DNA of 32,000 bases from contig JACPHJ010000152.1 in NCBI GenBank assembly GCA_016188675.1, positions 39,372 to 71,371 of the forward strand, read 5' to 3'. Under the pieces are notes generated by a model, which was given only the letters and a program-made list of their open reading frames with translations, made no database searches and had not been told where the DNA came from. The position numbers and the translations under genes were made by a program. Origin of the DNA: Planctomycetota bacterium. GTDB taxonomy: Bacteria; Planctomycetota; Brocadiia; Brocadiales; Brocadiaceae. Below, piece after piece: positions 1,118-29,327 of the stretch (the stretch's first letter is position 1; each line of letters begins with the position of its first letter).

Positions 1118-1126
1118 AATAGTAAC

Positions 1127-13184: not shown

Positions 13185-13213
13185 TTGACATTATTTTTGC
13201 AAATTTGTAGAAT
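13185..13213 (+). promoter_or_regulatory. Near-consensus sigma70-type promoter TTGACA-17 nt-TAGAAT upstream of acpS
   Basis: -35 at 13185-13190, 17-nt spacer, -10 at 13208-13213. Lies 72 nt upstream of the acpS ATG. Confidence 0.5.
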
Positions 13214-13672: not shown

Positions 13673-15147
13673 AAAAGCTTGTACTAATTAATCCGCATCC
13701 GATTGGAAATGTTGGTGAAGAAAATGTCTCTGTATTAAATCAAATGCCCGTGAATCTTGGGTATTTAAAGGTATTAACACCAAAGAATTGGCATGTTGAT
13801 ATCATAGACGAAACACAGGAACTTGCGATTGACGATACCGGAAATATTACTTTTGGTGAAGCTGACCTGGTTGGCATTACATCGGTAAGTTATCAGGCAC
13901 ATCGTGCATATCAAATAGCTACTGTCTGCAAAAAACGGGGTATACCCGTGATTATGGGCGGCATTCATGCCACCAGTTATCCGGAAGAGGCGGCAAACTA
14001 TGTGGATTGCGTTGTGACTAGAGAAGCCGTGACTACATGGGAAAAAATTATTAGCGATTTTGAAAAGGGATGTCTCCAAAAAAGATACGAAGGTGTTCTG
14101 ACACCCATGGAGTTGTATCAGGGACTGAGGCCTGATAGAAAATATTTAAAGGATAAATACAAATACCGCTACTCGGGTATCATAACAACTGCGGGTTGTC
14201 CTTTCAGTTGCGAGTTCTGCTCCGTGCCTCAGTTCCAGGGCAGGAAATATCGTGAAAGACCCGTTGAAGACGTCCTCGATGAATTCGAATCCATTAAAGG
14301 TCAATATCGCGGTTTAATATTAACGGACGAAAACTTTTATGGGCACAGCAAAAAGTCCAATGAACGTGTTCTTGAACTTTTCAAGGGAATGGTGGAGAGA
14401 GGCATTTATCAGAATTGGTTCGGGTTTACCTCACTCAACATTTACAAAGACGATGAAACCCTTGAATACATGAAAAAGAGCGGGTGCGTCGGGGTATTGA
14501 TTGGAATAGAATCCATCAATGAAGAAGCCCTGAAAACGATGAATAAGAATGTAAACCTGCGCATCTCGATTGAGAATTATTTCGAAGCCATTGCCAATAT
14601 CCGTAAACACGGTCTTGCAGTCTGGGGGACAATGGTATTTGGTAACGATGCCGATACGCCTGAAACCTTTAAACAGGTTGCTGATTTTGTTATGGATTCC
14701 CATGTTGATATCATGACCTGCGGTATTTTGTGTCCATTCATCAATACACCGCTGTATCACAGATTGAAAGGCGATGGCAGGCTGTTCAGGACAAACTTCC
14801 CCGAGGATTGGAAGTATTACACGTCTCATCACCTTACCTATATTCTCAAAAATATGTCTCTCCAGGAACTTATTGACGGCTTCCAATACTTGTATGACAA
14901 GATTTACGCCACAGAAGTATTGCGTCAAAGGTTCCAGAACGCAAAAGAGGTACTCAAAGATAACATGAATGCCGCCATGTTTGCATTCAGGGTAAATCTC
15001 GACTGGCAGAGTGTCTATCAACACCTGATACAAAATTTAAAAGAATTGCAAACATCGGGGTTTTACGAAGAGACATTGAAAAGCTATAATCTTGCGGGAA
15101 AACAGGGTAGAAAGCCGGAATTGACTGCCGTTGAGGCTCAGTCATAA
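13669..15147 (+). CDS. B12-binding-domain radical SAM enzyme (class B type)
   Basis: N-terminal cobalamin-binding-like Rossmann segment (DLVGITSVSYQAHRAY..A..CKKRGIPVIMGGIHAT). CPFSCEFC (CxxxCxxC, Cys codons at 14197, 14209 and 14218). The start overlaps the acpS stop (ATGA). Confidence 0.88.
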   Translation: MKKLVLINPHPIGNVGEENVSVLNQMPVNLGYLKVLTPKNWHVDIIDETQELAIDDTGNITFGEADLVGITSVSYQAHRAYQIATVCKKRGIPVIMGGIHATSYPEEAANYVDCVVTREAVTTWEKIISDFEKGCLQKRYEGVLTPMELYQGLRPDRKYLKDKYKYRYSGIITTAGCPFSCEFCSVPQFQGRKYRERPVEDVLDEFESIKGQYRGLILTDENFYGHSKKSNERVLELFKGMVERGIYQNWFGFTSLNIYKDDETLEYMKKSGCVGVLIGIESINEEALKTMNKNVNLRISIENYFEAIANIRKHGLAVWGTMVFGNDADTPETFKQVADFVMDSHVDIMTCGILCPFINTPLYHRLKGDGRLFRTNFPEDWKYYTSHHLTYILKNMSLQELIDGFQYLYDKIYATEVLRQRFQNAKEVLKDNMNAAMFAFRVNLDWQSVYQHLIQNLKELQTSGFYEETLKSYNLAGKQGRKPELTAVEAQS

Positions 15148-15160
15148 GATACCGCAATTT

Positions 15161-15190
15161 GAGATTTATGATTTGGAATCATAAGTTCTC
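15161..15190 (+). terminator. Hairpin TTATGATT-tgg-AATCATAA (perfect 8 bp, extendable), 14 nt after the radical SAM stop; related to the gatttacgatt/aatcgtaaatc repeat family
   Basis: Read directly. Confidence 0.4.
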
Positions 15191-15235
15191 TGTGGTTTAT
15201 TCGATTTCAGCAGTTGAATTTTATTGGTTATTATA

Positions 15236-15272
15236 GGTCAACTTATTCGCATTGAAAGGTGAATAGTTGACC
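15236..15272 (+). promoter_or_regulatory. Hairpin GGTCAACT(T)ATTC / GAATAGTTGACC (12 bp, one bulge, 12-nt loop), 29 nt upstream of the KS start
   Basis: Read directly. Function unknown (RNA structure or operator). Confidence 0.35.
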
Positions 15273-15300
15273 TCTATTATTTTACAGAATAAAAATAGAT

Positions 15301-16512
15301 ATGCCAAAGGTCGTAATTACAGGATTGGGATTAGTCACGCCCGTTGGAACAGGGATCAAAAAAAGCTGGGAATCGTTCATCCTGGGCAGAAACGGAGCGA
15401 ATGAGATGAAGTCATTCGATACATCCAAATACAAGGTGCACCGTTCCTGTGAGGTAAAAGATTTTCACTTAGACGTTGAGCTTGAAAACCAGATAAAGGA
15501 AAATACCATCCACAAATATGTCTACTACGCAGCCAGAGAGGCGTTACAGGAAAGCGGTTTATTGGATGATAAAAATTTCAACAGAGAACGGTTTGGTATT
15601 GCCATTGGTACATTAGCAGCCGAATTAACGCCTTTTGAGAGACTTCTCAGGTTAGACACTTCAAAAAAAGACAACGGTTTCGACAAGATTGTTGCAGCAG
15701 TTTATCCCCCCAATTCTATAACAAATATCCTGTCTGAAAATTTTGATTTCGAAGGCCCAACCATGATTTCATTGAATGCCTGCTCATCCGGCAATCATGC
15801 AATTGCCTGGGCCTGCGACCTTCTTTTAGAAAACAAGGTTGATGTGGTAATGGTCGGAGGGGGCGACATGATTCCTCAAACGGAATTCACCCATTTCCAT
15901 AACCTCAAGGCATTAGCGCCCGAACGCTGTCAGCCATTCGATAAAAACCGTCAGGGTCTCATGATTGGAGAAGGGGCTGGGATACTTATTATGGAACGCT
16001 ACGAATTTGCTAAAAAACGAGGCGCAGCGATTATCGCTGAAATGGCTGGTTACGGGCTGAGCTGTGATGGATTTCACATGACGGCGCCACATCCAGAAGG
16101 CGACGGCGCTGTAAAATGCATGAGCGATGCGCTAAAAATGGCAAATCTTTCTCAGGCAGACATCGGTTACATTAATGCACACGGCACTGGGACACCCCAT
16201 AACGACAAAACAGAAACAATTGCCATAAAACGTGTATTCACGGAATACGCCCATAAAATTCCCTGCAGTTCCACGAAATCTATGATTGGTCACCTTATGG
16301 GCGCGGCCAGTGCTGTAGAATCGGTCATTTGTTGTCTGGTACTACGGCATGGAATCGTACCGCCAACGATTAATTACGAAACGCCTGATCCGGAGTGTGA
16401 CCTCGATTATATACCCAATACGGCACGCGAATTAAATGTAAAGCATGTCTTGAATAATTCATTTGCCTTCGGCGGAAATAACGCCACGACAATTTTTAGT
16501 AAGATGGGTTAA
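15301..16512 (+). CDS. fabF: Beta-ketoacyl-ACP synthase II-type ketosynthase, catalytically complete
   Basis: NACSSGNHAI (Cys161, codon 15781-15783), FHMTAPHP, NAHGTGTPHND, KSMIGHLMGAAS and NSFAFGGNNAT. Confidence 0.9.
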   Translation: MPKVVITGLGLVTPVGTGIKKSWESFILGRNGANEMKSFDTSKYKVHRSCEVKDFHLDVELENQIKENTIHKYVYYAAREALQESGLLDDKNFNRERFGIAIGTLAAELTPFERLLRLDTSKKDNGFDKIVAAVYPPNSITNILSENFDFEGPTMISLNACSSGNHAIAWACDLLLENKVDVVMVGGGDMIPQTEFTHFHNLKALAPERCQPFDKNRQGLMIGEGAGILIMERYEFAKKRGAAIIAEMAGYGLSCDGFHMTAPHPEGDGAVKCMSDALKMANLSQADIGYINAHGTGTPHNDKTETIAIKRVFTEYAHKIPCSSTKSMIGHLMGAASAVESVICCLVLRHGIVPPTINYETPDPECDLDYIPNTARELNVKHVLNNSFAFGGNNATTIFSKMG

Positions 16513-16566
16513 GCAAAGCGAATCATCATTTAAGTCTATCCGTGTTGATCCGTAGTAAAAAACATT

Positions 16567-17802
16567 ATGAAAAAAAGAGTCGTTATTACAGGCTTAGGTG
16601 TTGTATCTCCTCTAGGATGTGGCAAAGAAGCCTTCTGGAATAACCTTATAGAGGGAAAGTCAGGTATTGCACCAATGACCTCTCTTGACCTCTCTCCCTA
16701 TAAATGCAAGCTCGGAGGCGAGGTTAGAGACCTGCATCCTGAGATACACCTGGGAAGCAAGGGACTAAAATACTTAAACAAAGGCACACGTTTTTTAGGC
16801 TCTGCCTCTAAGATGGCCATTGACGATGCAAAGATACCGCAGGACGGTTCCTTATCGAATCGTATGGGTATTGTCATAGGCTCATCTCTCGGAAATTTTT
16901 CTGAAACGACAGATTACTTCTACGAAATAATCCGTAATAATCCATCCGAGTTGTCACCCATGCTCAGTTATGACGTTGCTTTAAATTCTTCCATTAACTA
17001 TGTCTCGGTCATCTTTAAAATAAAGGGACTCGCGCGCACCATTTCTGCGGGTTTTACGTCTAGTACAGACGCAATAGGTGATGCCTATAAAATGATTCAG
17101 AGAGATATGGCAAAGGTAATTGTGGCTGGCGGTGTCGAGCAGATTTCCATTGATTTATATCTCATATTCTATTTACGGGGCTTGCTGTCCGGCCTTGATA
17201 GTACAAAAGAGGCAAGCACACCATTTGATAAGGACAGAAATGGCTTTGTCATGGCTGAAGGCAGTTACGTAGTTATTCTCGAAGAGCTCCAGCATGCCAT
17301 TGACCGGGGAGCGCATATCTATGCAGAGATAAAGGGATTTGGAAATACCTTTGTAGGAGGCAAAAACCATCCGGCAGATGAAAGAATTCGTCGGGCCGAA
17401 AAGGCTATGCACGGCGCTTTAGAAGACGCGGAAGTTAAAAAAGAAGACGTTGATTTCATCAGTGCAAATGCGAACGGATGCAAGATACAGGATGCAGTCG
17501 AGGCAAAGGCAATCCAATCATTATTCGGCGCAGGCAGCAATCGTATTCCAGTATCTGCAATAAAATCAAACATCGGCGAATCGTACGGGTCCGCAGGCGC
17601 AGCACAACTCATTTCATCGCTCATGTCAATAAACACAGGTCAAATACCGCACATCATCAATCACAACAACAAAGATCCAGAAATCAGTCTGAATCTTATC
17701 ATAGAAAAACCCCTCAAAAAAGAAATCCAAAACGCAATAATAAATAACATGGATTATGATGGAAATAATTCATGTCTGGTAATAAGCAAGTGTAGCAAAT
17801 AA
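16567..17802 (+). CDS. Ketosynthase-fold paralog lacking the Cys-His-His triad (chain-length-factor-like / KS-beta-like)
   Basis: Thiolase/KS fold motifs are retained (VVITGLGVVSPLG, DKDRNGFVMAEGS). The active-site positions read SAGFTSSTDAI (no Cys), GNTFVGGKNHP (no HxTAP), SANANGC (His to Asn) and KSNIGESYG (His to Glu). Confidence 0.85.
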   Translation: MKKRVVITGLGVVSPLGCGKEAFWNNLIEGKSGIAPMTSLDLSPYKCKLGGEVRDLHPEIHLGSKGLKYLNKGTRFLGSASKMAIDDAKIPQDGSLSNRMGIVIGSSLGNFSETTDYFYEIIRNNPSELSPMLSYDVALNSSINYVSVIFKIKGLARTISAGFTSSTDAIGDAYKMIQRDMAKVIVAGGVEQISIDLYLIFYLRGLLSGLDSTKEASTPFDKDRNGFVMAEGSYVVILEELQHAIDRGAHIYAEIKGFGNTFVGGKNHPADERIRRAEKAMHGALEDAEVKKEDVDFISANANGCKIQDAVEAKAIQSLFGAGSNRIPVSAIKSNIGESYGSAGAAQLISSLMSINTGQIPHIINHNNKDPEISLNLIIEKPLKKEIQNAIINNMDYDGNNSCLVISKCSK

Positions 17803-17871
17803 ATAATGTAATGCTTATTGATTGTGTTGTTTTATTATATTAACCGTCTTAAATAAGTTGACATTGAATGC

Positions 17872-17937
17872 TTGTCATTCCGAGCGGAGCGAGGAATCTT
17901 AAGATTTCTCAGTCGCTCTGCTCCTTCGAAATGACAA
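17872..17937. repeat. REP-like imperfect inverted repeat (TTGTCATTCCGAGCGGAGCGAGGAATC ... CGAAATGACAA)
   Basis: Perfect 8-bp outer arms TTGTCATT/AATGACAA with partially complementary GAGCGGAGCGA / TCGCTCTGCTC inside. Lies 70 nt after the KS-like stop. Confidence 0.6.
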
Positions 17938-18206
17938 CTTTCTTTTGTCGTTCGTTATAGATAAGATGAAATAGATAAAGGATTCGATGCCAGTGTAACT
18001 ACGACAGAAAATGCAAAATAACAAAATCAAACAATTATCATGATCCGTATAATATTCAAATTTTATCGTTACATAGAAATTATCAAATGCTTTTCAACAC
18101 GATTCTGATAGTTCCACATGAAATTGAAATATCATAAATAAGTCATTGGTAATTCATAGAATAAAGATAAATGTTATACGGACAAAAAATTTCAAAACCA
18201 TAAAAA

Positions 18207-18971
18207 ATGTTTGACACTCACTCAGTACACAAGAAGCCAGCAAATTCACGTCAAAAAATGTGGCGTTATATGACATACGAAAAACTCATGCAGACAATTG
18301 AAGAGGAGGTGATGTACTTTTCAAATATCACCCAAATGGGAGATAATTGGGAAGGGCTGCTGACGAAAAAGACGAGAGAAATGTTTTGGAGGTCTGAGCT
18401 TGCGAAATACAATGGAAATATGGAAGCAGCAGAAGGTTCAGTCAGACGGTACGAAGAATTTAGGAAGGATTTTTACATAAACTGTTGGCACATGAATGAT
18501 CATGAGTCTTACCTGATGTGGAAGGTTTACGCGAACAAAGGTTGTGCCATTCAAACTAACTATGAACGGCTCTCGGCTTCTTTCGAGGCTACGCCAGCTA
18601 AAATTGAAGGTTGTGTTGTCGAATATATCGATTATGAAAGAGACTATTTCAGTATAGGAAACACGTATACTCAAGTTGGTTACAAGGACATTCCGTACCG
18701 AGATGAGCGTGAGTACAGACTTCTATTTTGGAAGTCCGGTCTAGAAAACCAAAAGCTCAATGCAGGAGACAAAGGCATAAAAATACAAGTAGACCTAAGA
18801 ATGCTTATTGATAATATTTACCTCAACCCCAATCATCTACCCGATTACAGTGAATTGGAGAGTTTGATAAAGAAAAAGAGGTTAGACTGTGATATCAAAA
18901 ACACGAAAATCATGGAAAATAATGTACGCCCGTCCAAAGTGGTAAATTATCACATCTTAAAAGTTAAATAA
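18207..18971 (+). CDS. DUF2971-like protein, function unknown
   Basis: N-terminal MWRYMTYEKLMQTIEEEVMYFSNITQMGDNWEG matches the DUF2971 pattern (W/Y-R-Y-M..ekf..ll....l.F......D..EG). Isolated in AT-rich DNA. An alternative start lies at 18258. Confidence 0.6.
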   Translation: MFDTHSVHKKPANSRQKMWRYMTYEKLMQTIEEEVMYFSNITQMGDNWEGLLTKKTREMFWRSELAKYNGNMEAAEGSVRRYEEFRKDFYINCWHMNDHESYLMWKVYANKGCAIQTNYERLSASFEATPAKIEGCVVEYIDYERDYFSIGNTYTQVGYKDIPYRDEREYRLLFWKSGLENQKLNAGDKGIKIQVDLRMLIDNIYLNPNHLPDYSELESLIKKKRLDCDIKNTKIMENNVRPSKVVNYHILKVK

Positions 18972-19008
18972 TCGCATAATTCCCGTGATTTAACATTTGA
19001 GATGTGAC

Positions 19009-19043
19009 CCTCCACGCTTCCCTCCACACTTCCTCCACGCTTC
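19009..19043 (+). repeat. Tandem repeat CCTCCACGCTTC / CCTCCACACTTC / CTCCACGCTTC (3 units of about 12 nt)
   Basis: Read directly, 38 nt after the DUF2971 stop. Confidence 0.7.
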
Positions 19044-19133
19044 TTCAGTGGGTAGCCATTCCGGCGGAAAGAGTAAAAGTACTTTCATACAGGGTTCGTT
19101 AGTACTTTAATGTACAAGAATTTTCCAATCGAC

Positions 19134-19163
19134 TGTAGTGGCAAGGCGCGCCTTGCCACTACA
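19134..19163. repeat. Perfect 30-bp palindrome TGTAGTGGCAAGGCG|CGCCTTGCCACTACA
   Basis: Each half is the exact reverse complement of the other, with no loop. Confidence 0.8.
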
Positions 19164-19581
19164 ATGTTGTTAGTTGCCGAAGACCTTAATTATAAAGGGA
19201 AATTTCTTTGAATTAGTAACGAACGCTTACGCAACAAAAAAAAGAATACCACCATGCCGGATAATAAAGCAAGAAATTTTCCAGGTGGTAGTTTATATTT
19301 ATGACAAGACTTTTAAGATAGAATTTAACGTGGCAATTTACCACGCTGCCTCAAGAGATAAATACATATTCAGCCATTATCAGCTATTATGAAAGTGGGA
19401 AAAATATTCCTACTGCATATATAATCGCGACTTTTTACCTAGAAAATCACGGTTGTGGCACGCTAATCATACTTTTGGCATAATATTTGAGCTGTTTTTC
19501 TTTACTCGCATTTTGACCACACCTGAGATTTTGCTTTCATTTAACGTTTGTTCAGCAGTCTTAAAATCAAAGGAGAGAAAT

Positions 19582-20973
19582 ATGGCGCAGTCCGATGATA
19601 CAGACAAATACCTTTCAGTCAAGGTCTCTGACGACCTTATGAAGGTCTATTTAACGGTAAAACCCTTTGCAAAAGGGGGCGTTGATATCAACGTAAATGA
19701 CGTAATTCAAACCCTGCAGTCGAAAAATATTTCCTATGGAATAAAGGAAGAGGTTATCATGGCTACCCTGGATAAAGCCAGATTAAAAGACAGTGCCGTG
19801 GAGGATGTACTTATAGCAGAAGGAGACCAAACGATTTTTGGTGAAGACGGCAGGCTTGAATTTTTGTTTGACGTAGACAAGAAAATCAAGCCTCAAGAGG
19901 GCGCTCATGGTAAGATTGATTTTCACGAAGTGAGTATTATTGAGAATGTTGAAAAGGATCAACCCCTGGTAAAATTAATAGATCCAACTACCGGGAAGCC
20001 TGGGAAAAACGTATTTGGGAAAATGCTTAGCCCTGTACATGGGAAACCATGTGTACTCCCAATCGGTGAAAATACCAGGGTATCTGAGAAGGACTCGAAA
20101 TTGTTGGTATCCTGTGTCAGTGGAAATGTACGATATGCCGGTGGTGTTGTCTCTGTAAAGTCTTGCTGTACGGTCGAAAAGGACGTTGATTTTGGCGTGG
20201 GTAATATCACAAGCAAAGGAACTGTCGTTGTCAAAGGAAACGTAAGAAGCGGGTTTATTGTAGATGCGGTAGGAGATGTGGAGATTTGGGGTACGGTAGA
20301 AGATTCAATAATAAAGTCAAAGGGCAACGTCCTGATAAAAGGCGGTTTTATTGGTTCTGGTAAGGGAAAACTTGAGGCGGAGGGAGATGTAACCATTGGC
20401 TTTGCCAGGAATCAGACAATTGTGGCAACTAATGTAATAATATTACGAGAGGCAGTTGATTGTACAATCTATGCTAAAAATACCGTGAAGGTGACCGGGG
20501 ATAAGATATCCATCGAAGGTGGAATAACAACCTCAGGCGCAGTAATTGAAGTCGAATCATTGGGAAGTAAAAATGAGGTTCACACAGACATAGAAGTCGG
20601 CACTAACTACGCTGCACAGCAAAGTCAAATGAATACAAGGAGAGAGGTGAGTGGCTTAAAAGCTATTCTGAAAACGGTTGAAAAAGAACTCAACACATTG
20701 CATGCAATGAAGAAAGTGAAGGGGGAACTTCCGGCACAGTACATAAACACATTTGATCACCTCCTTTCCCGCAGGGAAGAGATAGTGAAAAAATTAAAAG
20801 ACCTTGCGAGCGAAGAAATAGTAGCTGTTAACAACGAAGCCAAAGTAGTGGTCAATAAGGTCGTTCATCCGGGAGTAGAGATTACGATTGGGGAATCAAC
20901 AATGACCATTCTTGAGGAATATAAAAAGACAACGTTCTATTTATCAGGAGATGAGATAAAAATCAAAAAATGA
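19582..20973 (+). CDS. FapA-family (DUF342) protein
   Basis: DKYLSVKVSDDLMKVYLTV, ISYGIKEE, GKPGKNVFGK, beta-helix-like repeats (G.V...G.V), a coiled coil, and C-terminal VVNKVVHPGVEITIGE. The ATG at 19582 has an AGGAGA SD. The ORF-track start at 19453 adds an implausible leader. Confidence 0.75.
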   Translation: MAQSDDTDKYLSVKVSDDLMKVYLTVKPFAKGGVDINVNDVIQTLQSKNISYGIKEEVIMATLDKARLKDSAVEDVLIAEGDQTIFGEDGRLEFLFDVDKKIKPQEGAHGKIDFHEVSIIENVEKDQPLVKLIDPTTGKPGKNVFGKMLSPVHGKPCVLPIGENTRVSEKDSKLLVSCVSGNVRYAGGVVSVKSCCTVEKDVDFGVGNITSKGTVVVKGNVRSGFIVDAVGDVEIWGTVEDSIIKSKGNVLIKGGFIGSGKGKLEAEGDVTIGFARNQTIVATNVIILREAVDCTIYAKNTVKVTGDKISIEGGITTSGAVIEVESLGSKNEVHTDIEVGTNYAAQQSQMNTRREVSGLKAILKTVEKELNTLHAMKKVKGELPAQYINTFDHLLSRREEIVKKLKDLASEEIVAVNNEAKVVVNKVVHPGVEITIGESTMTILEEYKKTTFYLSGDEIKIKK

Positions 20974-21167
20974 GCTTGTTATAGAAAATAGCCACAAAGT
21001 CACCGGATCAGCCAGAGCACGGTGCTCCATGCCCTCCTTTGCCGGTTCACCAATCCTTTATTATTGAATCACTATATCCCGCAATCTTTTTTTACAACAG
21101 AGCCGATTGAGTCGATACTGGAGTCACTTCCAAAAAAAGACGCTGTTTGTTTGTTTTCAGGATAAAC

Positions 21168-21196
21168 TTGACAAAAATTGTTGAGGTTCTTATAAT
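21168..21196 (+). promoter_or_regulatory. Perfect consensus sigma70-type promoter TTGACA-17 nt-TATAAT
   Basis: -35 at 21168-21173, -10 at 21191-21196. A second extended -10 (TGGTATAAT) lies at 21213-21221. Both point at the reductase gene about 220 nt downstream. Confidence 0.55.
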
Positions 21197-21419
21197 TCCA
21201 ACATGCCTGAAATGGTATAATTGCAGGCAGGATGCTGAAATGATGCCAAAAACAAGTTATATTGAATCTGCTAAACATTTTTTGAAAAACACATAGAATT
21301 TTGTACAATCCACATCAACTTACTCTTTTATCCTTGCGGAAAACATCCGTTATTGGCGTAGCAACGATTAAAGGGTCAACCTTTATAAACACCATCAAAA
21401 GATAATTTATAGAAAAAGC

Positions 21420-23444
21420 ATGAGCAAACTATTTGACAAAATACATATCGGCCAAATGACATTGAAAAACAGGATAATCATGTCCGCCATGGACCTGGGT
21501 TTTACTTCAGATGGCGCCATTAACGACCAGATTATCAACTTTTATATTGAGCGGGCAAAAGGGGGGGTAGGTCTTATTGTTGTTGGGGGTTGTTATCCCG
21601 AAATGAATGGCAAGGTCTGGAAGAGCATCATTGGGCTGGACAAGGACGAACTTATCCCCGGATTAAAAAGATTGACCGATGCAATTCGCCAGTATGACGT
21701 TCGTGTGGCCGCACAACTCCTTCATGCCGGTCGAAGCGCTTCATCCTTTTTCACAAAAATGCAGCCTGTTGCGCCGTCTGCCGTGGCATATAGAAGCATC
21801 AAAGAAGAGCCTCATGCCCTGACAATCCCTGAGATCAAAACGGTTATAAATAATTATGCAGGCGCCGCACTCAGGGCAAAAAAGGCCGGTTTTGATGCCG
21901 TGGAACTTCACGGTGGAATGGGTTATCTCATCAATCAGTTTCTTTCAAAGGCTACCAATAAACGCAACGACGAATATGGTGGAAGCCTTGAAAACAGAGT
22001 TCGTTTTGCGAAGGAAATGATTCTCGCGATAAAAGAAACTGTTGGAAAGGATTATCCCATCATCTTTCGAATGTCGGGAGACGACCTTGTAGAAGAAGGA
22101 CTAAAGATTGACGAAAGCGTTGAAATTGCCAAAATCCTTGAACAGGCAGGCGCCGACGCCTTTAACGTCTCTCCAGGCTGGCACGAAAGCAAGACCCCCA
22201 TTATGTTGATGTCTATTCCCAGGATGGCTTATGCATATCTTTCCGCGAAAGTTAAATCTCAGGTTACGGTTCCCGTGATTGCCTCGGTGCGGATAAACGA
22301 CCTCGAATTGGCAGAAGAAATATTGGATAATGAACAGGCGGATTTCGTGTCAATCGGTAGACCACTGATTGTTGATCCGGAACTGCCAAATAAATATAAA
22401 AATGGACAGTTTAATGATATCAGAACGTGTATTGCCTGTAATCAGGGGTGCTTTGATTCTTTGTTAAACTTTAAACACGTTTCCTGCACATATAATGCGA
22501 TGGTGGGACACGAAGGTGAATATAAAATAACCAAAACGGATAAACCAAAAAAGGTTGCAGTGGTGGGCGGTGGACCCGGTGGTATGGAGGCAGCCCGTGT
22601 CCTGGCATTGAGGGGACACCGTGTGACGCTGTACGAGAAAAATAATCAACTGGGCGGTCAATTGCGATATGCCTATATTCCTCCAGGACGAGAAGAAATA
22701 CAGAATATCATCACATATCTGGAAAGACAAATTTCAAAGCTCAAAGTAAACATAAAAATGGGAAGAGAGGCAGATTTGCAGACATTAGAGGAAGAACACC
22801 CTGACGCAGTAATCGTAGCTACAGGCGGACGCCCAATAATGCTCAATCTACCCGGAATAAAAGGAGAAAACGTTTATATTGCCGGCAGTGTGTTGGAAGG
22901 GAAAGTAACAACAGGGAAGGACGTCGTCATCATTGGCGGCGGAACGGTTGGATGTGAGGTGGCTTTGTATGTGGCCAAACAGGGAGCAATGAGGCCGGAT
23001 GTCGCCTGTTTTCTCCTTAAACATAAGGTGCTTGACGCCAAAGATATTGTTGAATTTACTTCGAAGGGAAACAGAAATATTACGCTCCTGGAAATGAAAA
23101 AAAAGGTGGGTGGTGGATTTGGTTTCTCCACACGATGGGTTATCCTCAATGAGCTGAAAGATGCAGGGATAAAAGAAATAACAGAGGTAAAGGTAAAAGA
23201 AATTATAAATAACCACGATGAAAATGGTCATAAAAATAGGGGAGTTGTGTACGAAAAGGACGGTCAGGAACATTTCATCAAGGCAGATACCGTAGTCATT
23301 GCCGTGGGATACGGGTCTAATAACGAACTCCAGAAACAGGTGGAAGGAAAATTTCCAGAAACTTACTTTATCGGAGACTGTGTCAAGGTGCGCACCGCAT
23401 TAGAAGCTATTCACGAAGGTTTTAAAGCAGCATTAAAAATATAG
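21420..23444 (+). CDS. 2,4-dienoyl-CoA reductase-like (FadH-type) OYE-family FMN/4Fe-4S oxidoreductase with a C-terminal FAD/NAD(P)-binding domain
   Basis: OYE N-terminus (IGQMTLKNRIIMSAM; QLLHAGR; ELHGGMGYLINQFLS..TN.R.DEYGGS). Cys cluster CIACNQGCFD...C. Dinucleotide fold VAVVGGGPGGMEAA. Confidence 0.88.
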   Translation: MSKLFDKIHIGQMTLKNRIIMSAMDLGFTSDGAINDQIINFYIERAKGGVGLIVVGGCYPEMNGKVWKSIIGLDKDELIPGLKRLTDAIRQYDVRVAAQLLHAGRSASSFFTKMQPVAPSAVAYRSIKEEPHALTIPEIKTVINNYAGAALRAKKAGFDAVELHGGMGYLINQFLSKATNKRNDEYGGSLENRVRFAKEMILAIKETVGKDYPIIFRMSGDDLVEEGLKIDESVEIAKILEQAGADAFNVSPGWHESKTPIMLMSIPRMAYAYLSAKVKSQVTVPVIASVRINDLELAEEILDNEQADFVSIGRPLIVDPELPNKYKNGQFNDIRTCIACNQGCFDSLLNFKHVSCTYNAMVGHEGEYKITKTDKPKKVAVVGGGPGGMEAARVLALRGHRVTLYEKNNQLGGQLRYAYIPPGREEIQNIITYLERQISKLKVNIKMGREADLQTLEEEHPDAVIVATGGRPIMLNLPGIKGENVYIAGSVLEGKVTTGKDVVIIGGGTVGCEVALYVAKQGAMRPDVACFLLKHKVLDAKDIVEFTSKGNRNITLLEMKKKVGGGFGFSTRWVILNELKDAGIKEITEVKVKEIINNHDENGHKNRGVVYEKDGQEHFIKADTVVIAVGYGSNNELQKQVEGKFPETYFIGDCVKVRTALEAIHEGFKAALKI

Positions 23445-23486
23445 AAATATGGCAAACATAAGCAAGTATTCTGAGGTTTTCTTGCA

Positions 23487-24293
23487 ATGAAAGATATTCG
23501 CATGAATCGTGGTGATAACTCCGGTTATAACAACATCGAGTTTGAAGAAATTTCTGGAGATAATGGCAAGGCTGTTGGCATTATCTACATGAAGAAACCA
23601 CCGCGAAACTCCATTGGATCATGGCTTCTCGACGCCATCTACAATAAAATGGATCAATACGAGGGCGATGATAAAATCGGAGCTATCGTTATTGCAAGCA
23701 AACTCAGAGGTGTCTTCAGCGACGGCGCAGACCGTGACGAACTCTTTGGCTCATGGATATCAGGACTTGTTGCAGAAAAGAACTATGAACGATTCCACCG
23801 CGCCCATGAGATGTTCGTGGAAATTGAAAATTGCAAAAAGCCCGTTGTTGCCGCTATTAACGGCGTTACTATCGGCGCAGGCCTGGAACTCGCCATGTTG
23901 TGTGACCTGCGTATTGCATCAGAACTTTCCTTCTTTAGCCTTCCGGAAGCAAAACCGGAACTCAGCATTATTCCCGGCCTGGGTGGTACTCAGCGTTTGC
24001 CTCGTTATATTGGCGCTGCACGCGCCAAGGAAATGCTGTTCCTGGGCAAGATGATCCGTGCCGAGACGGCATTGGAGTGGGGTCTCATTAACCAGATTGC
24101 GCCGCATAAAGAAGTGTTAGACCAAACCATAGAGATTGCAAAAATTCTCTTAGAACGTGATGCACGTGCGTTAAAGGAAATGAAAAAGTGTATTAACTTT
24201 GCCGTAGAGAATGATATCCTGAAGGGCATCGAATATGAGGTAGGTCTCTTTGCTGAGATGATGCGATTGAAGCTTTTACATAAAAGTAAATAA
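23487..24293 (+). CDS. Enoyl-CoA hydratase/isomerase (crotonase superfamily)
   Basis: AAINGVTIGAGLELAMLCDLRIA and LPEAKPELSIIPGLGGTQRLPR. Both catalytic Glu positions are present. Confidence 0.88.
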   Translation: MKDIRMNRGDNSGYNNIEFEEISGDNGKAVGIIYMKKPPRNSIGSWLLDAIYNKMDQYEGDDKIGAIVIASKLRGVFSDGADRDELFGSWISGLVAEKNYERFHRAHEMFVEIENCKKPVVAAINGVTIGAGLELAMLCDLRIASELSFFSLPEAKPELSIIPGLGGTQRLPRYIGAARAKEMLFLGKMIRAETALEWGLINQIAPHKEVLDQTIEIAKILLERDARALKEMKKCINFAVENDILKGIEYEVGLFAEMMRLKLLHKSK

Positions 24294-24560
24294 GGCGTTG
24301 AAATTATTTTTAAAAGAAAACAAAAAGAGTACCAACAATTGCCCAGAATTGACCAAAGATAAAAATAAACATCCATTTAGTAATCCCAGACCTGACTTTA
24401 CCAATTTCTTCAGCAACCTTCTTTCGAATTTTTCCTCTACGAGGACAATTATATCTTCTTTACTTTTTTCTTCAGATTTATTGATAATCTCTACCAAGGC
24501 ATCTGCGCCTTCATCGGTGAGTTTTTCACGCAAAACTTTAGGTATTGTAATTACTGCCAT
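24276..24560 (-). CDS. Small coiled-coil/membrane-anchored protein (DUF1640-like / MAVITIP..REKL family); possibly frameshifted
   Basis: Strong SD (AAAAGGAG) 7 nt upstream of the ATG. N-terminus MAVITIPKVLREKLTDEGADALVEIINK...VEEKFERR. The family-like TM tail is in the -1 frame (see findings). Its 3' end overlaps the crotonase gene by 18 nt. Confidence 0.55.
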   Translation of the reverse strand: MAVITIPKVLREKLTDEGADALVEIINKSEEKSKEDIIVLVEEKFERRLLKKLVKSGLGLLNGCLFLSLVNSGQLLVLFLFSFKNNFNALFTFM

Positions 24561-24657
24561 AAGTGCTCCTTTTTGATGAGATTTATTGTAGTGAGCCTAT
24601 CACGTTCTCTCTATACTGTCAAGATGTATTGCTTGGCCTCAGGCCACATTTTTTGCC

Positions 24658-24686
24658 TTGCATTTCAAAATCCATTTCTTTACTAT
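24658..24686 (+). promoter_or_regulatory. Candidate sigma70-type promoter TTGCAT-17 nt-TACTAT for fabG; a 13-bp palindrome TGGCCTCAGGCCA lies at 24634-24646 just upstream
   Basis: Read directly in the 186-nt divergent intergenic region. Confidence 0.3.
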
Positions 24687-24746
24687 ACCACATCAAAACA
24701 ATTGATAAATTGAAACAGGAAACTTACTTATTAAGGAGGATATTGC

Positions 24747-25490
24747 GTGGAATTTAAGGATAAGGTGGCAATCGTCACAGGTGGCACAAGAGGGATAGGA
24801 CGGGCAATCGCACTGGAACTGGCAAAGAACGGCTGCAACATCGCTTTTAATTATAGTAAAAGCGCTGATGCAGCAACTGCATTGGTAAAGGAAATCGAAA
24901 CCCTGGGCGTGAAAGCCTTTTCTTTACAGGTTGATGCCGCCAGTTTAGAGGGTGCAAAAAATATGATAAAAGAGGTCAAGGAAAAGTTTGGGAAAATTGA
25001 CTTTCTGGTAAACAATGCAGGAATTACCCGAGATAAACTCCTGGCCTTGATGGCAGAGAGTGACTGGGATGACGTCATCAATACCAATCTCAAGAGCGTG
25101 TATAATTTTTCAAAGGCGGTTATTACCCAGATGATCAAGCAAAAGGCAGGCAGTATCCTTAATATAACCTCTGTAAGCGGAATAATCGGGATGGCAGGCC
25201 AGGTTAACTATTCTTCCTCAAAGGCAGGCATGATCGGTTTTACGAAGGCGCTTGCAAAGGAGGTTGGAAAGGTAAATGTCACCGTAAATGCCATTGCCTG
25301 CGGTTTTATTGAAACCGATATGACAGCTGTGCTGCCCCAGGAATACAAAGATAAGGTAATCGAAATGATCCCCGTGAGAAGATTCGGCAAGGCCGAAGAG
25401 GTTGCAAAAACAGCGGTATTTTTGTTGTCTGACAATGCGAGATATATTACCGGCCATGTTATTAGTGTAGACGGCGGTTTGGCGATATAA
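24747..25490 (+). CDS. fabG: 3-oxoacyl-[ACP] reductase (SDR family)
   Basis: VTGGTRGIGRAIA, NNAGITRD, YSSSKAG and VNAIACGFIETDM. GTG start preceded by AAGGAGG. Confidence 0.9.
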   Translation: MEFKDKVAIVTGGTRGIGRAIALELAKNGCNIAFNYSKSADAATALVKEIETLGVKAFSLQVDAASLEGAKNMIKEVKEKFGKIDFLVNNAGITRDKLLALMAESDWDDVINTNLKSVYNFSKAVITQMIKQKAGSILNITSVSGIIGMAGQVNYSSSKAGMIGFTKALAKEVGKVNVTVNAIACGFIETDMTAVLPQEYKDKVIEMIPVRRFGKAEEVAKTAVFLLSDNARYITGHVISVDGGLAI

Positions 25491-25506
25491 GAATATTGAT
25501 ATAAAC

Positions 25507-25709
25507 TCACCGCAAAGGCGCAAAGAACGCAAAGAAAGTTGTTAGTTGTAAGATTTAAGTTAAACCCGCAATTGCTAAGTTGATGTATAGGAATTTCAAA
25601 CACCCCCATAATCCCCCCGTAAACGGAGGGAAACAGGGGGGTAGCTGAAGGCCTAACTTACAACTTTGAACTGTTTTAAAACTTTGCGTCCTTCGTGCCT
25701 TTGCGGTGA
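25507..25709. repeat. Composite 203-bp inverted-repeat element: 28-bp terminal arms built from (CGCAAAG)x3 (25/28 complementary) around a C6/G6 core motif; REP/MITE-like
   Basis: Left arm TCACCGCAAAGGCGCAAAGAACGCAAAG (25507-25534). Right arm CTTTGCGTCCTTCGTGCCTTTGCGGTGA (25682-25709). The core at 25601-25650 resembles the motif at 226-268. No convincing target-site duplication. Confidence 0.6.
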
Positions 25710-25742
25710 AAAGGACTTTTAAAAACGAAAGGGTAGAAAGCT

Positions 25743-26054
25743 ATGTTATTTCTTTTAAAGGTTGAGGTAAAACAGATGCCCCAGATGCCTGTAAAGGACT
25801 TTCTGGGATACGTAATACGGGAGTGGGAGTATTTTTCACGATTTCAGCGGCGCGGCAAGATATTGGCAGGCGGAAAGCTGTCCGGCAGGCGCGGAGCTGC
25901 CGCTATTATTGACGCTGAGTCCAACGAAGAAATGGAAGAGATCGTCTCTAAATTGCCCCTTTTCCCATTTTTTACCGATATCGAAATTACACCCCTCGTG
26001 CCGATGGAAAAGGCACTGCTGGATACCAAGAGAATTCATTCTCTCATGAAGTAA
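25743..26054 (+). CDS. Muconolactone delta-isomerase-fold small protein (CatC-like family)
   Basis: MLFLLKVEVK...(Q)RRGK...AAAIIDAESNEEMEEIVSKLPLFPFFTDIEITPL parallels CatC (MLFHVKM...REG...SVFDV.S.E.LH..L..LPLFPYMDIEV.L); 103 aa. Confidence 0.65.
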   Translation: MLFLLKVEVKQMPQMPVKDFLGYVIREWEYFSRFQRRGKILAGGKLSGRRGAAAIIDAESNEEMEEIVSKLPLFPFFTDIEITPLVPMEKALLDTKRIHSLMK

Positions 26055-26093: not shown

Positions 26094-27533
26094 ATGAAAA
26101 AACTACTAAAAACAATTTCAATTATTATCGTACTGTTTCTTTCTGCCCAATGCATATATGCCCAGGAAATAACTGAAGCAGAATATCTCCAGCTAAAAAA
26201 CAGGCTCAAGTCAGACTTCATGCAAAAGTTAAAAGAAGAAATTAAAAATGAACTCACCGAGGAATTACAAGAGAAAATTAAAAAAGAGTTCATCGAGGAA
26301 TTGAAGGCCGAGTACACGATAGAACCAAAACAAAAGCTGGTAACTGCAAAACCAGAAACCACAATTGAGATAAATAATCCACAGAAAGAATCAAAAGAGG
26401 TTTATACACAGAAAGGAGAGACTATCAAAAATACAGAATACCCGAAAGAGGTTGGGGAAATAGAATTGGATAAGGCAAGATATAAACTGGGTGAGGGGCT
26501 TACCTTCGGCGAACAACTCCTGGTCATCCGGGGCTTTGGAAATGTTAATGCGCGGTACAGGGATAATAACCCCAGCGAAAGATTCGAAAGCGGCGATAAC
26601 TTCTTTTCACTCGGTGAATTTGATCTGTTTATGACGTCAAAACTCAGTAACCGCATATCCTTCCTTAATGAAACTGTGTTTGAGTTTGACCGAGGAGAAA
26701 ATACTGAAGAACGCACAGAGCCGATTGAAATAGACATAGAGCGATTATTAATTCATTACGACATTAATAACCTTCTGAAAATCGATGTAGGAAAATTCTT
26801 CCTCCCGCTTGGATACTGGATACCAACTTACAATCACGGGGTCTGGTTTCAGACAACCATGGATAGACCAGATATAGTCAATTTTCAGGATAAAGGCGGT
26901 CCTATGCCAACGCATGATACAGGCATAAAAATATACGGTAGTGCCTTGCTGGAAGGTTTTGACCTGAATTACGCATGCGCAATTAGTAACGGAAGGGGAG
27001 TCAATACAACTCAAAGACAGAATTTTAGAGATATAAATGATAAAAAGGCTATAAGTTTACAACTGGATATACAGCCCCATATACTTGAAGGTGTACGGCT
27101 GGGTCCGAGTGTCTATTACGATGTAATACCTGAAGATAAAACCGAACCAAACAGGGAAAATGAACTCAGGGAAATTATTTATGGCGGGCATATTGTTTAT
27201 ACCTTTAGGAATATCGATCTGTTAACGGAGGTATTTGAAATAAATCACGATGAATTTTCAGGCGGTGTATTTAATACGATCGGTGGATATGCACAATTTG
27301 CATATACTATTAACAAATTTAAACCGTACTACAGATATGATTATATTGACTACAGCAATGATGACCCATTCTATCGAGAAAGCGAACTTGATTTCCTTGA
27401 TACGAGTAAACATACCATAGGGTTACGATATGAACTCTCACACTTTAACGCATTAAAATTTGAATATTCACACGGTGTATTTGATGATAAAGATGTAAAC
27501 GTTATAGGACTGCAGACGACATTTTCATTTTAA
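26094..27533 (+). CDS. Outer-membrane beta-barrel porin-like protein with an N-terminal coiled coil (OprO/P-like?)
   Basis: Signal peptide ending AQE, a charged heptad region, alternating beta-strand patterns, and a C-terminus GLQTTFSF with terminal Phe. Confidence 0.6.
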   Translation: MKKLLKTISIIIVLFLSAQCIYAQEITEAEYLQLKNRLKSDFMQKLKEEIKNELTEELQEKIKKEFIEELKAEYTIEPKQKLVTAKPETTIEINNPQKESKEVYTQKGETIKNTEYPKEVGEIELDKARYKLGEGLTFGEQLLVIRGFGNVNARYRDNNPSERFESGDNFFSLGEFDLFMTSKLSNRISFLNETVFEFDRGENTEERTEPIEIDIERLLIHYDINNLLKIDVGKFFLPLGYWIPTYNHGVWFQTTMDRPDIVNFQDKGGPMPTHDTGIKIYGSALLEGFDLNYACAISNGRGVNTTQRQNFRDINDKKAISLQLDIQPHILEGVRLGPSVYYDVIPEDKTEPNRENELREIIYGGHIVYTFRNIDLLTEVFEINHDEFSGGVFNTIGGYAQFAYTINKFKPYYRYDYIDYSNDDPFYRESELDFLDTSKHTIGLRYELSHFNALKFEYSHGVFDDKDVNVIGLQTTFSF

Positions 27534-27541
27534 CAAAATCA

Positions 27542-28006
27542 ATGAGACTGGTATCAATCACAGTGCTTGTATTTACGGTTATCTTTGTAACAAATACCTG
27601 TGCAGACATTGCCGTTATCGTTAACAAATCAAATCCTGTATCAGATATTTCTTACAATGAACTAAAACAAATTCTGGAGGCAAGGAAACAATACTGGAAT
27701 AATGGCGAGAAAATTACCCTTATTTTTAAGGCAATCACATCTTCTGAAACGCGTTTGTTGATAGATAAGATATATAAAATAAAGTATGAGGATTTTGACA
27801 AATACTGGTTTTTAAAGGCATATGACAATAAAATAATGGAATTCCCAAAGATATTAGGCTCTGCCGGGACAATAAACATACTTGTTTCGGAAATTCCCGG
27901 AGCAATAGCCTTTATTGGCATAAATGATGTATCCAGACGTGGAAATGTTAAGACACTCATGATTGATGGAAAATTGCCTGATGAAGATGGCTATCCGTTG
28001 AAATAA
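27542..28006 (+). CDS. Small periplasmic PstS/PBP-like substrate-binding domain protein
   Basis: Signal peptide, IAVIVNKSNPVSDISYNELKQI and GAIAFIG blocks typical of short PBP_like_2 proteins. Starts 8 nt after the porin stop. Confidence 0.6.
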   Translation: MRLVSITVLVFTVIFVTNTCADIAVIVNKSNPVSDISYNELKQILEARKQYWNNGEKITLIFKAITSSETRLLIDKIYKIKYEDFDKYWFLKAYDNKIMEFPKILGSAGTINILVSEIPGAIAFIGINDVSRRGNVKTLMIDGKLPDEDGYPLK

Positions 28007-28040
28007 GAATGTCGAATCATCTACTATGGAGAAGTAAGAC

Positions 28041-29327
28041 ATGCGTATTGGACAACGACTGGGAATTGGTTTTGGTATAATCCTGTTATTGATGATAGGA
28101 ATGACTATTTTTGTATCCTTTTCTTTGAATAAGATTGAGAAAATACAAAAAACAGTCGCTTCCCATGCCACCAACGTAAAGATCATCAATACGTTAAAGA
28201 AAAGTATTGATCGGTGGCTTATGACCGTGGAATATATTTTGGAGAAAAGGGACTTATCGCAATTGGATTACCACGAGATACTCGAAGCAACTATTGAAGG
28301 AGAATTAGATGAAATTGATTGGGACATTTATGGAGTAACAGCATTAAAACTTCGCGATGAAATTACACAAACCTTTAATAATATTGAGAAATTAGATAAT
28401 ACCGTACAGATGTCCCTTAGGTTGGGGAACAAGTCACCTGAGACAATAAATATGGATGACGCTATTAATTCATTCGAAGCAGATGCATCCCACATTACAA
28501 GGGTATTCGCAAGCCTTAATGAAATTGCCAATAAAACATATGAACAAGTGCTTGTCTATTCAAAAAAAACAGAAAAGAGAAGCTGGCTATCTATTTATGT
28601 CATTGTACCCATAGCAATAGGTTTCAGTATTTTCAATGGATTTGCTACAACGAGAAGTATAACAAATCCATTGAAACTGTTGTATACAGCAACAATAAAA
28701 ATTATCAATGGATCATTCGATGTAAAATTGAGCATAAAATCACCAACCGAAATAGAGGAACTTTTAAATACTTTTAATATTATGTCAGTGAAATTGAACG
28801 AGTCATATAAAAGACTTGAAACGTTATCTATAATAGACAAACTGACGGGTTTGTATAATAGAAGATATTTTGACGAGGCTTTAGAAAGAGAGGTATTAAG
28901 GGCAAAACGGTTTAATCAAGCCCTCGGTCTGCTCTTTATAGATATAGATAAATTCAAACATATCAATGACACTTATGGACATGATGAGGGCGACAAGGTA
29001 TTGCAGCGCCTGGGACAGTTAATAATTGGAAATATGAGAAACGGAATTGACGTAGCATGCCGATACGGGGGTGAAGAATTTACCATAATATTACCAGAAA
29101 CTCAAAGCTATGCTGCATTCAACATTGCCAATCGAATACTCAACAATTTCAGGAACATGAAATTTCACATCCCAACAAAGGACGTAATTGTTCAAAAGAC
29201 AATAAGTATCGGTATTGCAGAACTTGGACAATCGTTAGATGCAAAGACAATGCTTGTTAACGCAGACAAGGCAATGTATGAGGCAAAAAAACTGGGTGGA
29301 AATAGGATTTGTGAATATCGAGTGTAA
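28041..29327 (+). CDS. Membrane-bound diguanylate cyclase (2 TM, periplasmic helical sensor, HAMP, GGDEF)
   Basis: DKLTGLYNRRYF, FIDIDKFKHINDTYGH..GD and RYGGEEF. The I-site position reads RNGID (RxxxD), so it is not the canonical RxxD. Confidence 0.9.
   Translation: MRIGQRLGIGFGIILLLMIGMTIFVSFSLNKIEKIQKTVASHATNVKIINTLKKSIDRWLMTVEYILEKRDLSQLDYHEILEATIEGELDEIDWDIYGVTALKLRDEITQTFNNIEKLDNTVQMSLRLGNKSPETINMDDAINSFEADASHITRVFASLNEIANKTYEQVLVYSKKTEKRSWLSIYVIVPIAIGFSIFNGFATTRSITNPLKLLYTATIKIINGSFDVKLSIKSPTEIEELLNTFNIMSVKLNESYKRLETLSIIDKLTGLYNRRYFDEALEREVLRAKRFNQALGLLFIDIDKFKHINDTYGHDEGDKVLQRLGQLIIGNMRNGIDVACRYGGEEFTIILPETQSYAAFNIANRILNNFRNMKFHIPTKDVIVQKTISIGIAELGQSLDAKTMLVNADKAMYEAKKLGGNRICEYRV

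Follow-up and report, generated by a model that had tools for sequence, protein, structure and literature searches.

Among the closest described systems are two gene clusters of Kuenenia. One of them, kuste2802-2805, was reported by Rattray et al. (2009; PMC2649909) and has been expressed in E. coli (Javidpour et al., 2016; PMC4790861); a dienoyl reductase, a hydratase, and a muconolactone isomerase go unmentioned in both papers. The other, Cluster I (kuste3603-3608), contains amxACP, amxFabZ, amxFabF2/amxFabFmut, a desaturase-like protein, and a B12-binding radical S-adenosylmethionine protein (B12-rSAM), and no gene has so far been experimentally linked to ladderanes (preprint 10.64898/2026.05.19.726425). 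One large reconstitution, with 34 Kuenenia genes in E. coli, gave no new fatty acid. Ladderane biosynthesis is a long-standing open question. We analyzed a 32,000-nt stretch of a Planctomycetota bacterium of the family Brocadiaceae (GCA_016188675.1, JACPHJ010000152.1, positions 39,372 to 71,371 of the forward strand), which is called the window throughout. It carries genes for a FadH-like reductase, a crotonase, FabG, and a muconolactone isomerase-like (MIase-like) protein. On balance, these four genes probably form the downstream half, largely reductive, of an ancestral anammox operon of eight genes, whose products would build or modify acyl chains bound to a carrier protein.

The source genome is a 3.6-Mb metagenome-assembled genome (MAG) of 201 contigs (99.4% complete, 5.1% contamination), and the window lies on its contig C38. 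Order-wide counts refer to 92 anammox genomes, among them those of the families f1 (Brocadiaceae, n = 46), f2 (n = 14), f3 (Scalindua-like, n = 28), f4 (n = 2), and f5 (n = 1). Hydrazine synthase alpha is present in every tested family of the order, which marks the source of the window as an anammox bacterium; its close orthologs bear names such as Candidatus Wunengus, Brocadia, and Jettenia. The dead ketosynthase (KS), FadH-like, crotonase, and MIase-like genes were located across all 92 genomes, and 40 kb around the FadH-like ortholog was compared with all window proteins in ten relatives. Gene identities, intact catalytic motifs, synteny, phyletic patterns, and promoter conservation were observed directly in this material. 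Among the Brocadiaceae genera, g1 is the genus of the window, g6 is Brocadia-like, and g12 is Kuenenia-like.

In genomes such as G013 and G039 eight genes are contiguous, in the order acpS, rSAM, KS, dead KS, FadH-like, crotonase, fabG, and MIase-like. The window has all eight in this ancestral order on the + strand, interrupted at 17803-21149, 24294-24746, and 25491-25742. The first half (13286-17802, +), assigned by Pfam, NCBIfam, and synteny, consists of AcpS (13286-13672), the B12-rSAM protein (13669-15147), an active, FabF-like KS (15301-16512), and a dead KS resembling a chain-length factor (CLF; 16567-17802), all on the + strand. It corresponds to kuste2802-2805 (Rattray et al., 2009; PMC2649909). 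The dead KS and FadH-like genes are on the same strand and 0-482 nt apart in f3 wherever both are on one contig, 25-184 nt apart in f2, 232 nt apart in f4 (G027), 910 nt apart in f5, and 0-63 nt apart in the Brocadiaceae genera g7 and g10. Since the FadH-like gene adjoins the dead KS gene in other families as well as in g7 and g10, the eight-gene unit is ancestral. In the other Brocadiaceae, this unit is broken at a single junction, that between dead KS and FadH-like gene. The separation amounts to 0.7 kb in g9, 2.2-5 kb in g1, 2.6 kb in g11, 3.4 kb in one g12 genome (G067), and 9-19 kb in g8, g2, and one g6 genome; in most g6 and most g12 genomes the two genes are hundreds of kb apart or on separate contigs.

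The sequence-only reading had regarded the four genes as the second half of the locus that contains the AcpS/rSAM/KS module, and both the gaps of 0-910 nt in f2-f5, g7, and g10 and the contiguous arrangement in G013 and G039 bear this out. The comparison of synteny and co-occurrence across genomes that it had called for was run: the genes co-occur with the module, and the contrary pattern was not found. It had also doubted that this was a standard fad operon, rightly so, as acyl-CoA dehydrogenase, thiolase, and ligase genes are all absent nearby. The FadH-like and crotonase genes on one side, and the FabG and MIase-like genes on the other, behave as separable pairs in other genomes. We also observed that the crotonase gene still adjoins the dead KS gene in G050 (G050:C1:2357738-2360732), with the FadH-like gene 1.4 Mb away, and that crotonase and FabG genes are adjacent on one contig of G027 (G027:C4:41403-42942), with the MIase-like gene on another.

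The 17803-21149 interval (+) is a lineage-specific insertion that splits the operon. It consists of a 254-aa orphan gene (18207-18971, +), found only in the genome of the window, and a FapA-family gene (19453-20973, +) located between the dead KS and FadH-like genes. All four assessable genomes of the same genus (G005, G006, G002, and G001) have the FapA spacer, and no FapA-type spacer was found in genomes of the adjacent type (G013, G016, and families f2 and f3). In the genus of the window, a FapA gene would thus have been inserted between the dead KS and FadH-like genes, cutting the operon, and the 254-aa gene would be a further insertion in this genome. A second copy of the FadH-like (partial), crotonase, FabG, and MIase-like genes was found on contig C148 (positions 1-3088), 85-97% identical and free of the insertions seen in the window. 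We rejected it as a true paralog; because of this level of identity, the lack of insertions, and the 5.1% contamination of the bin, a second strain binned into the MAG is more likely.

The second half appears to be served by its own consensus sigma-70 promoter, conserved across the Brocadiaceae. The conserved block (21150-21213, +) comprises GGATAAAC, the -35 hexamer TTGACA (21168-21173, +), a 17-nt spacer, the -10 hexamer TATAAT (21191-21196, +), and tCCAACATGCCTGAAAT, the conserved initial transcribed stretch. The perfect promoter named in the sequence-only reading was recovered as a 12/12 match at 21168-21196 (+). The ATG at 21420 follows after 223 nt, and no other 12/12 site occurs between 17.5 and 29.5 kb in the window. 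Perfect sites with 17-nt spacing are enriched in the genome, since 15 were found vs. 1.3 expected from base composition; 40 perfect sites were counted genome-wide when spacers of 16-18 nt were allowed. This anammox bacterium seems to make full use of the E. coli-type sigma-70 consensus. Of 30 split Brocadiaceae genomes, 27, belonging to nine genera, have a 12/12 site with conserved flanks ahead of the FadH-like gene, and the genomes that share the block have FadH-like proteins with identities down to 72%. The consensus of the block reads GGATAAAC, -35, AA, cT preceding the -10, and then tCCAACATGCCTGAaATTGAAGAATTAGAAC. A chance match was rejected on account of this conservation. The block is not a dispersed repeat either: just one other locus, on contig C124 before pepA-uvrA, has a 42-nt stretch of it.

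No such site precedes the FadH-like gene in genomes of the adjacent arrangement (best 9/12), nor does one occur in the dead KS/FadH-like spacers of f3 and f5 (8-10/12). The operon has a near-consensus promoter further upstream, TTGACA-17-TAGAAT (11/12; 13185-13213, +), 72 nt 5' of acpS; an 11/12 site at the same 72-nt distance was found in G013, and in genomes of the adjacent arrangement this promoter presumably serves the whole operon. Being present in split and missing from adjacent genomes, the dedicated maximal-consensus promoter therefore accompanies the split. It speaks for a high level of expression, at least of the FadH-crotonase pair. The earlier claim that it drives four genes is well founded as regards the promoter itself; that a single promoter serves all four is less certain, given the separable pairs, the 453-nt gap between crotonase and FabG, and the antisense open reading frame (ORF) and hairpin in that gap. 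As a consensus promoter kept across genera, it provides a defined regulatory element in organisms that are not yet genetically manipulable.

The leader of 223 nt (21197-21419, +) is conserved in its first ∼35 nt only, and its length among split Brocadiaceae genomes ranges from 89 to 465 nt. A riboswitch or structured leader was considered and rejected: no Rfam match was obtained anywhere in the window, the fold is no better than that of shuffled sequences (z 0.37), and conservation is limited to those first nucleotides. A weaker promoter-like sequence, TTGAAA-16-TACAAT (10/12), lies within the leader at 21282-21309, 110 nt before the FadH-like ATG, and is common to the closest relative G005 only. 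The related stretch on contig C124 (∼6776-6838, -) belongs to a second perfect TTGACA-17-TATAAT, located 5' of a pepA-like aminopeptidase gene and uvrA. Its 42 nt are 88% identical to the -10/early-leader block that precedes the FadH-like gene in other genera (cTTATAAT-CCgAACATaCCTGAAATTGAAGgATTgGAACA); the two loci may have an operator or leader element in common.

The FadH-like gene (21420-23444, +) encodes a 674-aa protein with an old yellow enzyme (OYE)/FMN barrel, a 4Fe-4S region, and FAD/NAD(P)H domains. Pfam matches to Oxidored_FMN (248 bits) and Pyr_redox_2 (115 bits) agree with the enzyme of the dienoyl-CoA reductase type predicted from the sequence. It aligned over its full length with E. 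coli FadH (PDB 1PS9; residues 3-674 vs. 4-671, E 1e-114). The two proteins share the CxxCxxxCx11C motif of the 4Fe-4S cluster, whose residues C337, C340, C344, and C356 are invariant in a multiple alignment. Equivalents of Tyr166 and His252, which we take to be the proton donors of E. coli FadH, are kept as well (GYLINQF and GWHES vs. GYLINEF and GWHEA) and are nearly invariant in that alignment. The anammox protein differs from E. coli FadH in having Met at the position of Glu164 and His at that of Met161 (HGGMGY motif), and its gene stands in a biosynthetic context, whereas E. coli FadH has a beta-oxidative role. The context is not that of FadH proper: no fad genes are nearby, and the ancestral place of the gene is inside the acpS-rSAM-KS operon. 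Assignments as BaiCD (533 vs. a cutoff of 825 bits), mycofactocin OYE_2 (516 vs. 793), and bilirubin reductase (510 vs. 750) were rejected, all scores being below the NCBIfam cutoffs. The public label "mycofactocin system FadH/OYE" on one Brocadia ortholog is likewise not supported by these scores.

Of the 92 anammox genomes, 85 have an ortholog of the FadH-like protein; a search of 378 other Planctomycetota at E ≤ 1e-140 gave none. Identity within the anammox clade is 67%, and its next relatives in a library clustered at 50% identity reach only 45-47%. The two closest non-anammox relatives, P0122 and P0123, are on contigs too short for gene context. The closest one that could be placed, P0124 (46% identical), is found in a cluster of thiolase, 3-hydroxyacyl-CoA dehydrogenase (3HCDH), enoyl-CoA hydratase (ECH), acyl-CoA dehydrogenase (ACAD), FadH, and thiolase genes. 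A literature search for a connection between dienoyl-CoA reductase and anammox returned nothing relevant. In the closed, Jettenia-like genome G023 (G023:C1:344703-346720) the FadH-like match comes in two overlapping pieces (residues 1-117 and 111-674), which suggests a frameshift or sequencing error.

The crotonase-family gene (23487-24293, +; ECH_1, 162 bits) encodes a protein in which both catalytic Glu residues, as noted from the sequence, are indeed present: E134 and E154, equivalent to rat Glu144 and Glu164, are invariant among orthologs. An N-terminal extension specific to anammox bacteria and a 2-residue insert after E154 were also found. Orthologs are present in f1 (43/46), f3 (27/28), and f4 (2/2), and missing from f2 (0/14) and f5 (0/1). 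The enzyme is predicted to be hydratase-competent, yet it appears dispensable in f2 and f5. Its best matches are ordinary short-chain enoyl-CoA hydratases, and the match to the polyketide-synthase ECH model PRK07110 is weak (100.6 bits, cutoff 215). FabM of streptococci and the ECH domains of polyketide beta-branching are crotonase-fold enzymes that act on acyl carrier protein (ACP) thioesters. They offer a precedent for a "CoA-type" crotonase working on enoyl or hydroxyacyl chains held by a carrier protein in a fatty-acid or polyketide pathway, though sequence comparison did not place the anammox crotonase in either group.

Between the crotonase and FabG genes, the small divergent gene described earlier is present as an antisense ORF of 94 aa (24276-24560, -). 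The ORF shares 18 nt with the 3' end of the crotonase gene, and its N-terminus matches NCBIfam LA_3696_Nterm (56 bits, cutoff 32). The spacer is 453 nt long in the window vs. 75 nt in G013 and 190 nt in the C148 copy; the FabG-MIase gap, which holds an inverted-repeat element (25507-25709, no strand assigned), is 252 nt in the window, 82 nt in G013, and almost nil on C148. The antisense-ORF spacer and the inverted-repeat element are small insertions specific to the window's copy, and the antisense ORF is outside the functional unit. A terminator-like hairpin with a T-run (24631-24655, +), a consensus match only, is located 92 nt before the FabG start.

FabG, a 3-oxoacyl-ACP reductase (24747-25490, +), has a GTG start behind AAGGAGG. 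The family assignment made from the sequence is confirmed by TIGR01830 (318.8 vs. a cutoff of 297.75 bits), by the motifs TGGTRGIG (TGxxxGIG), NNAG, Ser142, and Tyr155-x3-Lys159, and by top PDB matches that are FabG proteins. It is the only FabG of the genome: the sole other match above the TIGR01830 cutoff is its C148 copy, and searches with TIGR01830, PF13561, and tblastn with five other anammox types of short-chain dehydrogenase/reductase (SDR) recovered FabG, the C148 copy, and one generic 228-aa SDR only. As the only FabG, it would therefore serve all acyl-ACP synthesis, that of Cluster I included.

Enoyl-ACP reductases showed an uneven distribution. With a bona fide FabI from a Scalindua-like genome as the query, homologs were found in f3 (25/28), f4 (2/2), and f1 (1/46, a partial match), and none in f2 (0/14) and f5 (0/1). 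Free-standing FabK occurs in f4 and one f1 genome only. FabV was found in 0/92 anammox genomes; since none of the control genomes offered a positive control, this is weak evidence. Three SDRs were found in the closed Brocadia-like genome G012, namely FabG, a FabG paralog, and a gluconate-dehydrogenase-like protein, none of which is FabI. The G012 SDR at 2.0 Mb was rejected as FabI because it is gluconate-5-dehydrogenase-like and patchy in distribution, and the G018 SDR at 1.93 Mb because it is PRK09134-like. Across the order, the gluconate-5-dehydrogenase-like SDR shows a patchy pattern roughly opposite to that of FabI. Giant ORFs of 2,500-2,900 aa with an NMO/FabK-like domain were seen in G022, G057, G060, G052, G054, G010, G039, and G080, which suggests megaenzymes resembling polyketide synthases (PKS) or polyunsaturated fatty acid (PUFA) synthases. 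The FabI/FabK/FabV gap in the Brocadiaceae, together with a FadH-like protein that is widespread in the order and encoded with a KS pair and FabG, makes the latter a candidate enoyl-ACP reductase; more broadly, it is the best candidate for an enoyl- or dienoyl-thioester reductase.

The MIase-fold protein (103 aa; 25743-26054, +; Pfam 55.7 bits, cutoff 26.7) matches the fold proposed for it, since its best fold matches are ClcF and muconolactone isomerase. It shares the small alpha+beta fold of these proteins (PDB 1MLI, 3ZNJ, and 4FPI) at an identity of only ∼24-27%. Glu27-Trp28 is invariant, and Glu27 aligns with the residue mutated in ClcF E27A (PDB 3ZO7, solved with substrate). As a further difference from muconolactone isomerase and ClcF, the family has a signature of its own, RGKxLAGGKLxGRRGAAAI. 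The protein is not a muconolactone delta-isomerase (CatC), as TIGR03221 gave 44 vs. a cutoff of 130.6 bits and no cat or pca genes are nearby; a Protein Atlas search with it returned generic MIase clusters only. Orthologs were found in 82/92 anammox genomes, or 58/59 of the high-quality ones, and none of the other three proteins is as well conserved (91-100% identity for the MIase-like protein within Brocadiaceae). The nearest non-anammox relatives, 50-56% identical, occur in fabH-(ferredoxin)-MIase arrangements near fabG. These neighbors tie the family to fatty-acid synthesis and not to aromatic catabolism. One such locus, L044 (GCA_008501825.1, QQUA01000023.1), is from a member of the Planctomycetota with no full hydrazine-synthase alpha match. 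It has a fabH-ferredoxin-MIase-like arrangement and, ∼6 kb away, a B12-rSAM protein (45% identical), a KS (37%), a short dead KS, and FabG (49%), which makes it a rare counterpart of the operon in a genome of this kind. The module is thus not strictly bound to anammox bacteria.

We infer the substrates, the ACP rather than CoA carrier, the transcription units, and any ladderane link from these observations. In the proposed scheme, FabG would reduce 3-oxoacyl-ACP for every fatty-acid system of the cell, and the crotonase would (de)hydrate or isomerize 3-hydroxy/enoyl thioesters. The FadH-like flavoenzyme would reduce an enoyl or dienoyl thioester, and in the Brocadiaceae it probably covers the enoyl-ACP reductase step; the MIase-like protein may carry out a proton-shift (double-bond) isomerization through Glu27. 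Several points weigh against this scheme. The functions of all four proteins are read from homology and context. We know of no OYE-type enoyl-ACP reductase, and CoA esters are the substrates of E. coli FadH and the naphthoyl-CoA reductase NCR, which are structurally closest to the FadH-like protein. P0124, the closest non-anammox relative whose gene context could be read, sits in a beta-oxidation cluster, and a cluster of ACAD, 3HCDH, and crotonase genes on contig C75 indicates some CoA-level acyl metabolism in the genome itself. In f3 and f4 the FadH-like gene coexists with FabI, so it must have a role beyond replacing FabI. A hairpin resembling a terminator and the antisense ORF stand between the crotonase and FabG genes. 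The reductase inventory comes from a 201-contig MAG, although one that is 99.4% complete, the FabV result has the weakness given above, and an atypical SDR or a reductase of the medium-chain dehydrogenase/reductase (MDR) type could fill the enoyl-reductase gap. Lastly, Rattray et al. (2009; PMC2649909) list Kustd2023 as the Kuenenia FabI, and Kustd2023 could not be mapped here.

Three other explanations were weighed against an operon for acyl chains on a carrier protein. A system dedicated to ladderanes, in line with the sequence-only reading, in which the FadH-like protein and crotonase process conjugated or polyunsaturated intermediates (e.g., the products of the phytoene-desaturase-like enzyme of Cluster I) that feed radical cyclization, is unlikely. 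The eight-gene unit and the FadH-like and MIase-like orthologs are confined to anammox bacteria in the samples searched, the FadH-type active site with its Tyr166/His252 equivalents and Fe-S cluster would suit dienoyl reduction, a desaturase-like gene and a second B12-rSAM gene are present in Cluster I of this genome, and the retention of FabI beside the FadH-like gene in f3 and f4 suggests a special role. However, the sole FabG cannot be pathway-specific, the crotonase is missing from 14/14 f2 genomes and the single f5 genome, and L044 has a related set of rSAM, KS, short CLF, and FabG together with the fabH-ferredoxin-MIase module; nor does the literature hold an experimental link between genes and ladderanes (10.64898/2026.05.19.726425). 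The sole FabG and the fabH/fabG-linked MIase-like family are at least equally suggestive of acyl-ACP synthesis in general.

The FabG argument also speaks against a private reduction cycle for some other specialized lipid, such as the methyl-branched acids typical of anammox bacteria, with the B12-rSAM protein as a C-methyltransferase and the second half as that cycle. The rSAM protein matches B12-dependent methyltransferase families best (the "rSAM_ladder_B12" score is 85 vs. a cutoff of 360 bits), the KS and CLF-like pair suggests chain-length control, and a related cluster exists outside anammox bacteria; even so, we consider this quite improbable. An auxiliary beta-oxidation function, in which the FadH-like protein and crotonase act on unsaturated CoA esters (e.g., in lipid turnover) and their position is accidental, is very improbable. 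It would agree with E. coli FadH as the best structural match, with P0124 inside a beta-oxidation cluster, with the two hydratase Glu residues of the crotonase, and with the ACAD/3HCDH/ECH cluster on C75. Yet no beta-oxidation neighbor was seen in ∼20 anammox loci inspected, the genes had their ancestral place inside the acpS-rSAM-KS operon on the same strand with gaps of 0-200 nt, the anammox clade stands well apart from other FadH proteins (67% within, ≤47% outside), and an auxiliary catabolic gene of an autotroph would not normally be expected to have a conserved consensus promoter.

Downstream of the MIase-like gene, the window has porin-like, PBP-like, and GGDEF genes (26094-29327) before hemA. 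In G013, G014, and G010, hemA is directly 3' of the MIase-like gene, and this block is thus another local insertion.

Compared with the described clusters, the published kuste2802-2805 ends after four genes, whereas the four genes studied here continue that ancestral operon. In the Kuenenia-like genus the parts are scattered: the FadH-crotonase pair is 316 kb from the dead KS gene in G018, 71 kb in G066, and 3.4 kb downstream in G067, no dead KS ortholog was found in G068, and the FabG-MIase pair of G018 is elsewhere again. This scatter explains why Rattray et al. (2009) and Javidpour et al. (2016) name kuste2802-2805 alone, and, with the four genes mostly away from that cluster in Kuenenia, why they are missing from the 34-gene set. 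The four-gene extension, the conserved promoter, the pattern of a sole FabG with FabI missing, and the fabH-linked MIase relatives are new with respect to the literature. The four genes belong to an ancestral operon; among their products are the sole FabG of the cell and the strongest candidate for a missing enoyl reductase.

Cluster I (10.64898/2026.05.19.726425) is a sister system with the same core of KS, dead KS, and B12-rSAM. In the genome of the window it is on contig C28, where its KS, dead KS, and B12-rSAM are 47, 37, and 54% identical, respectively, to those of the operon; it encodes ACP, FabZ, KS, dead KS, a desaturase-like protein, and rSAM, without a ketoreductase or an enoyl reductase. 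We tentatively suggest, as a possibility that is more doubtful than the operon reading itself, that the FadH-like protein is the enoyl-ACP reductase of the Brocadiaceae and f2, a new bacterial class of such enzymes, which with FabG and the MIase-like protein would supply the reductive and isomerizing steps that Cluster I lacks. If true, this could explain the productless heterologous reconstitution, which was done without these four genes. The two systems are complementary in content: Cluster I has an ACP and a dehydratase and no ketoreductase, enoyl reductase, or phosphopantetheinyl transferase, whereas the eight-gene operon has AcpS, FabG, and the FadH-like reductase and neither ACP nor FabZ.

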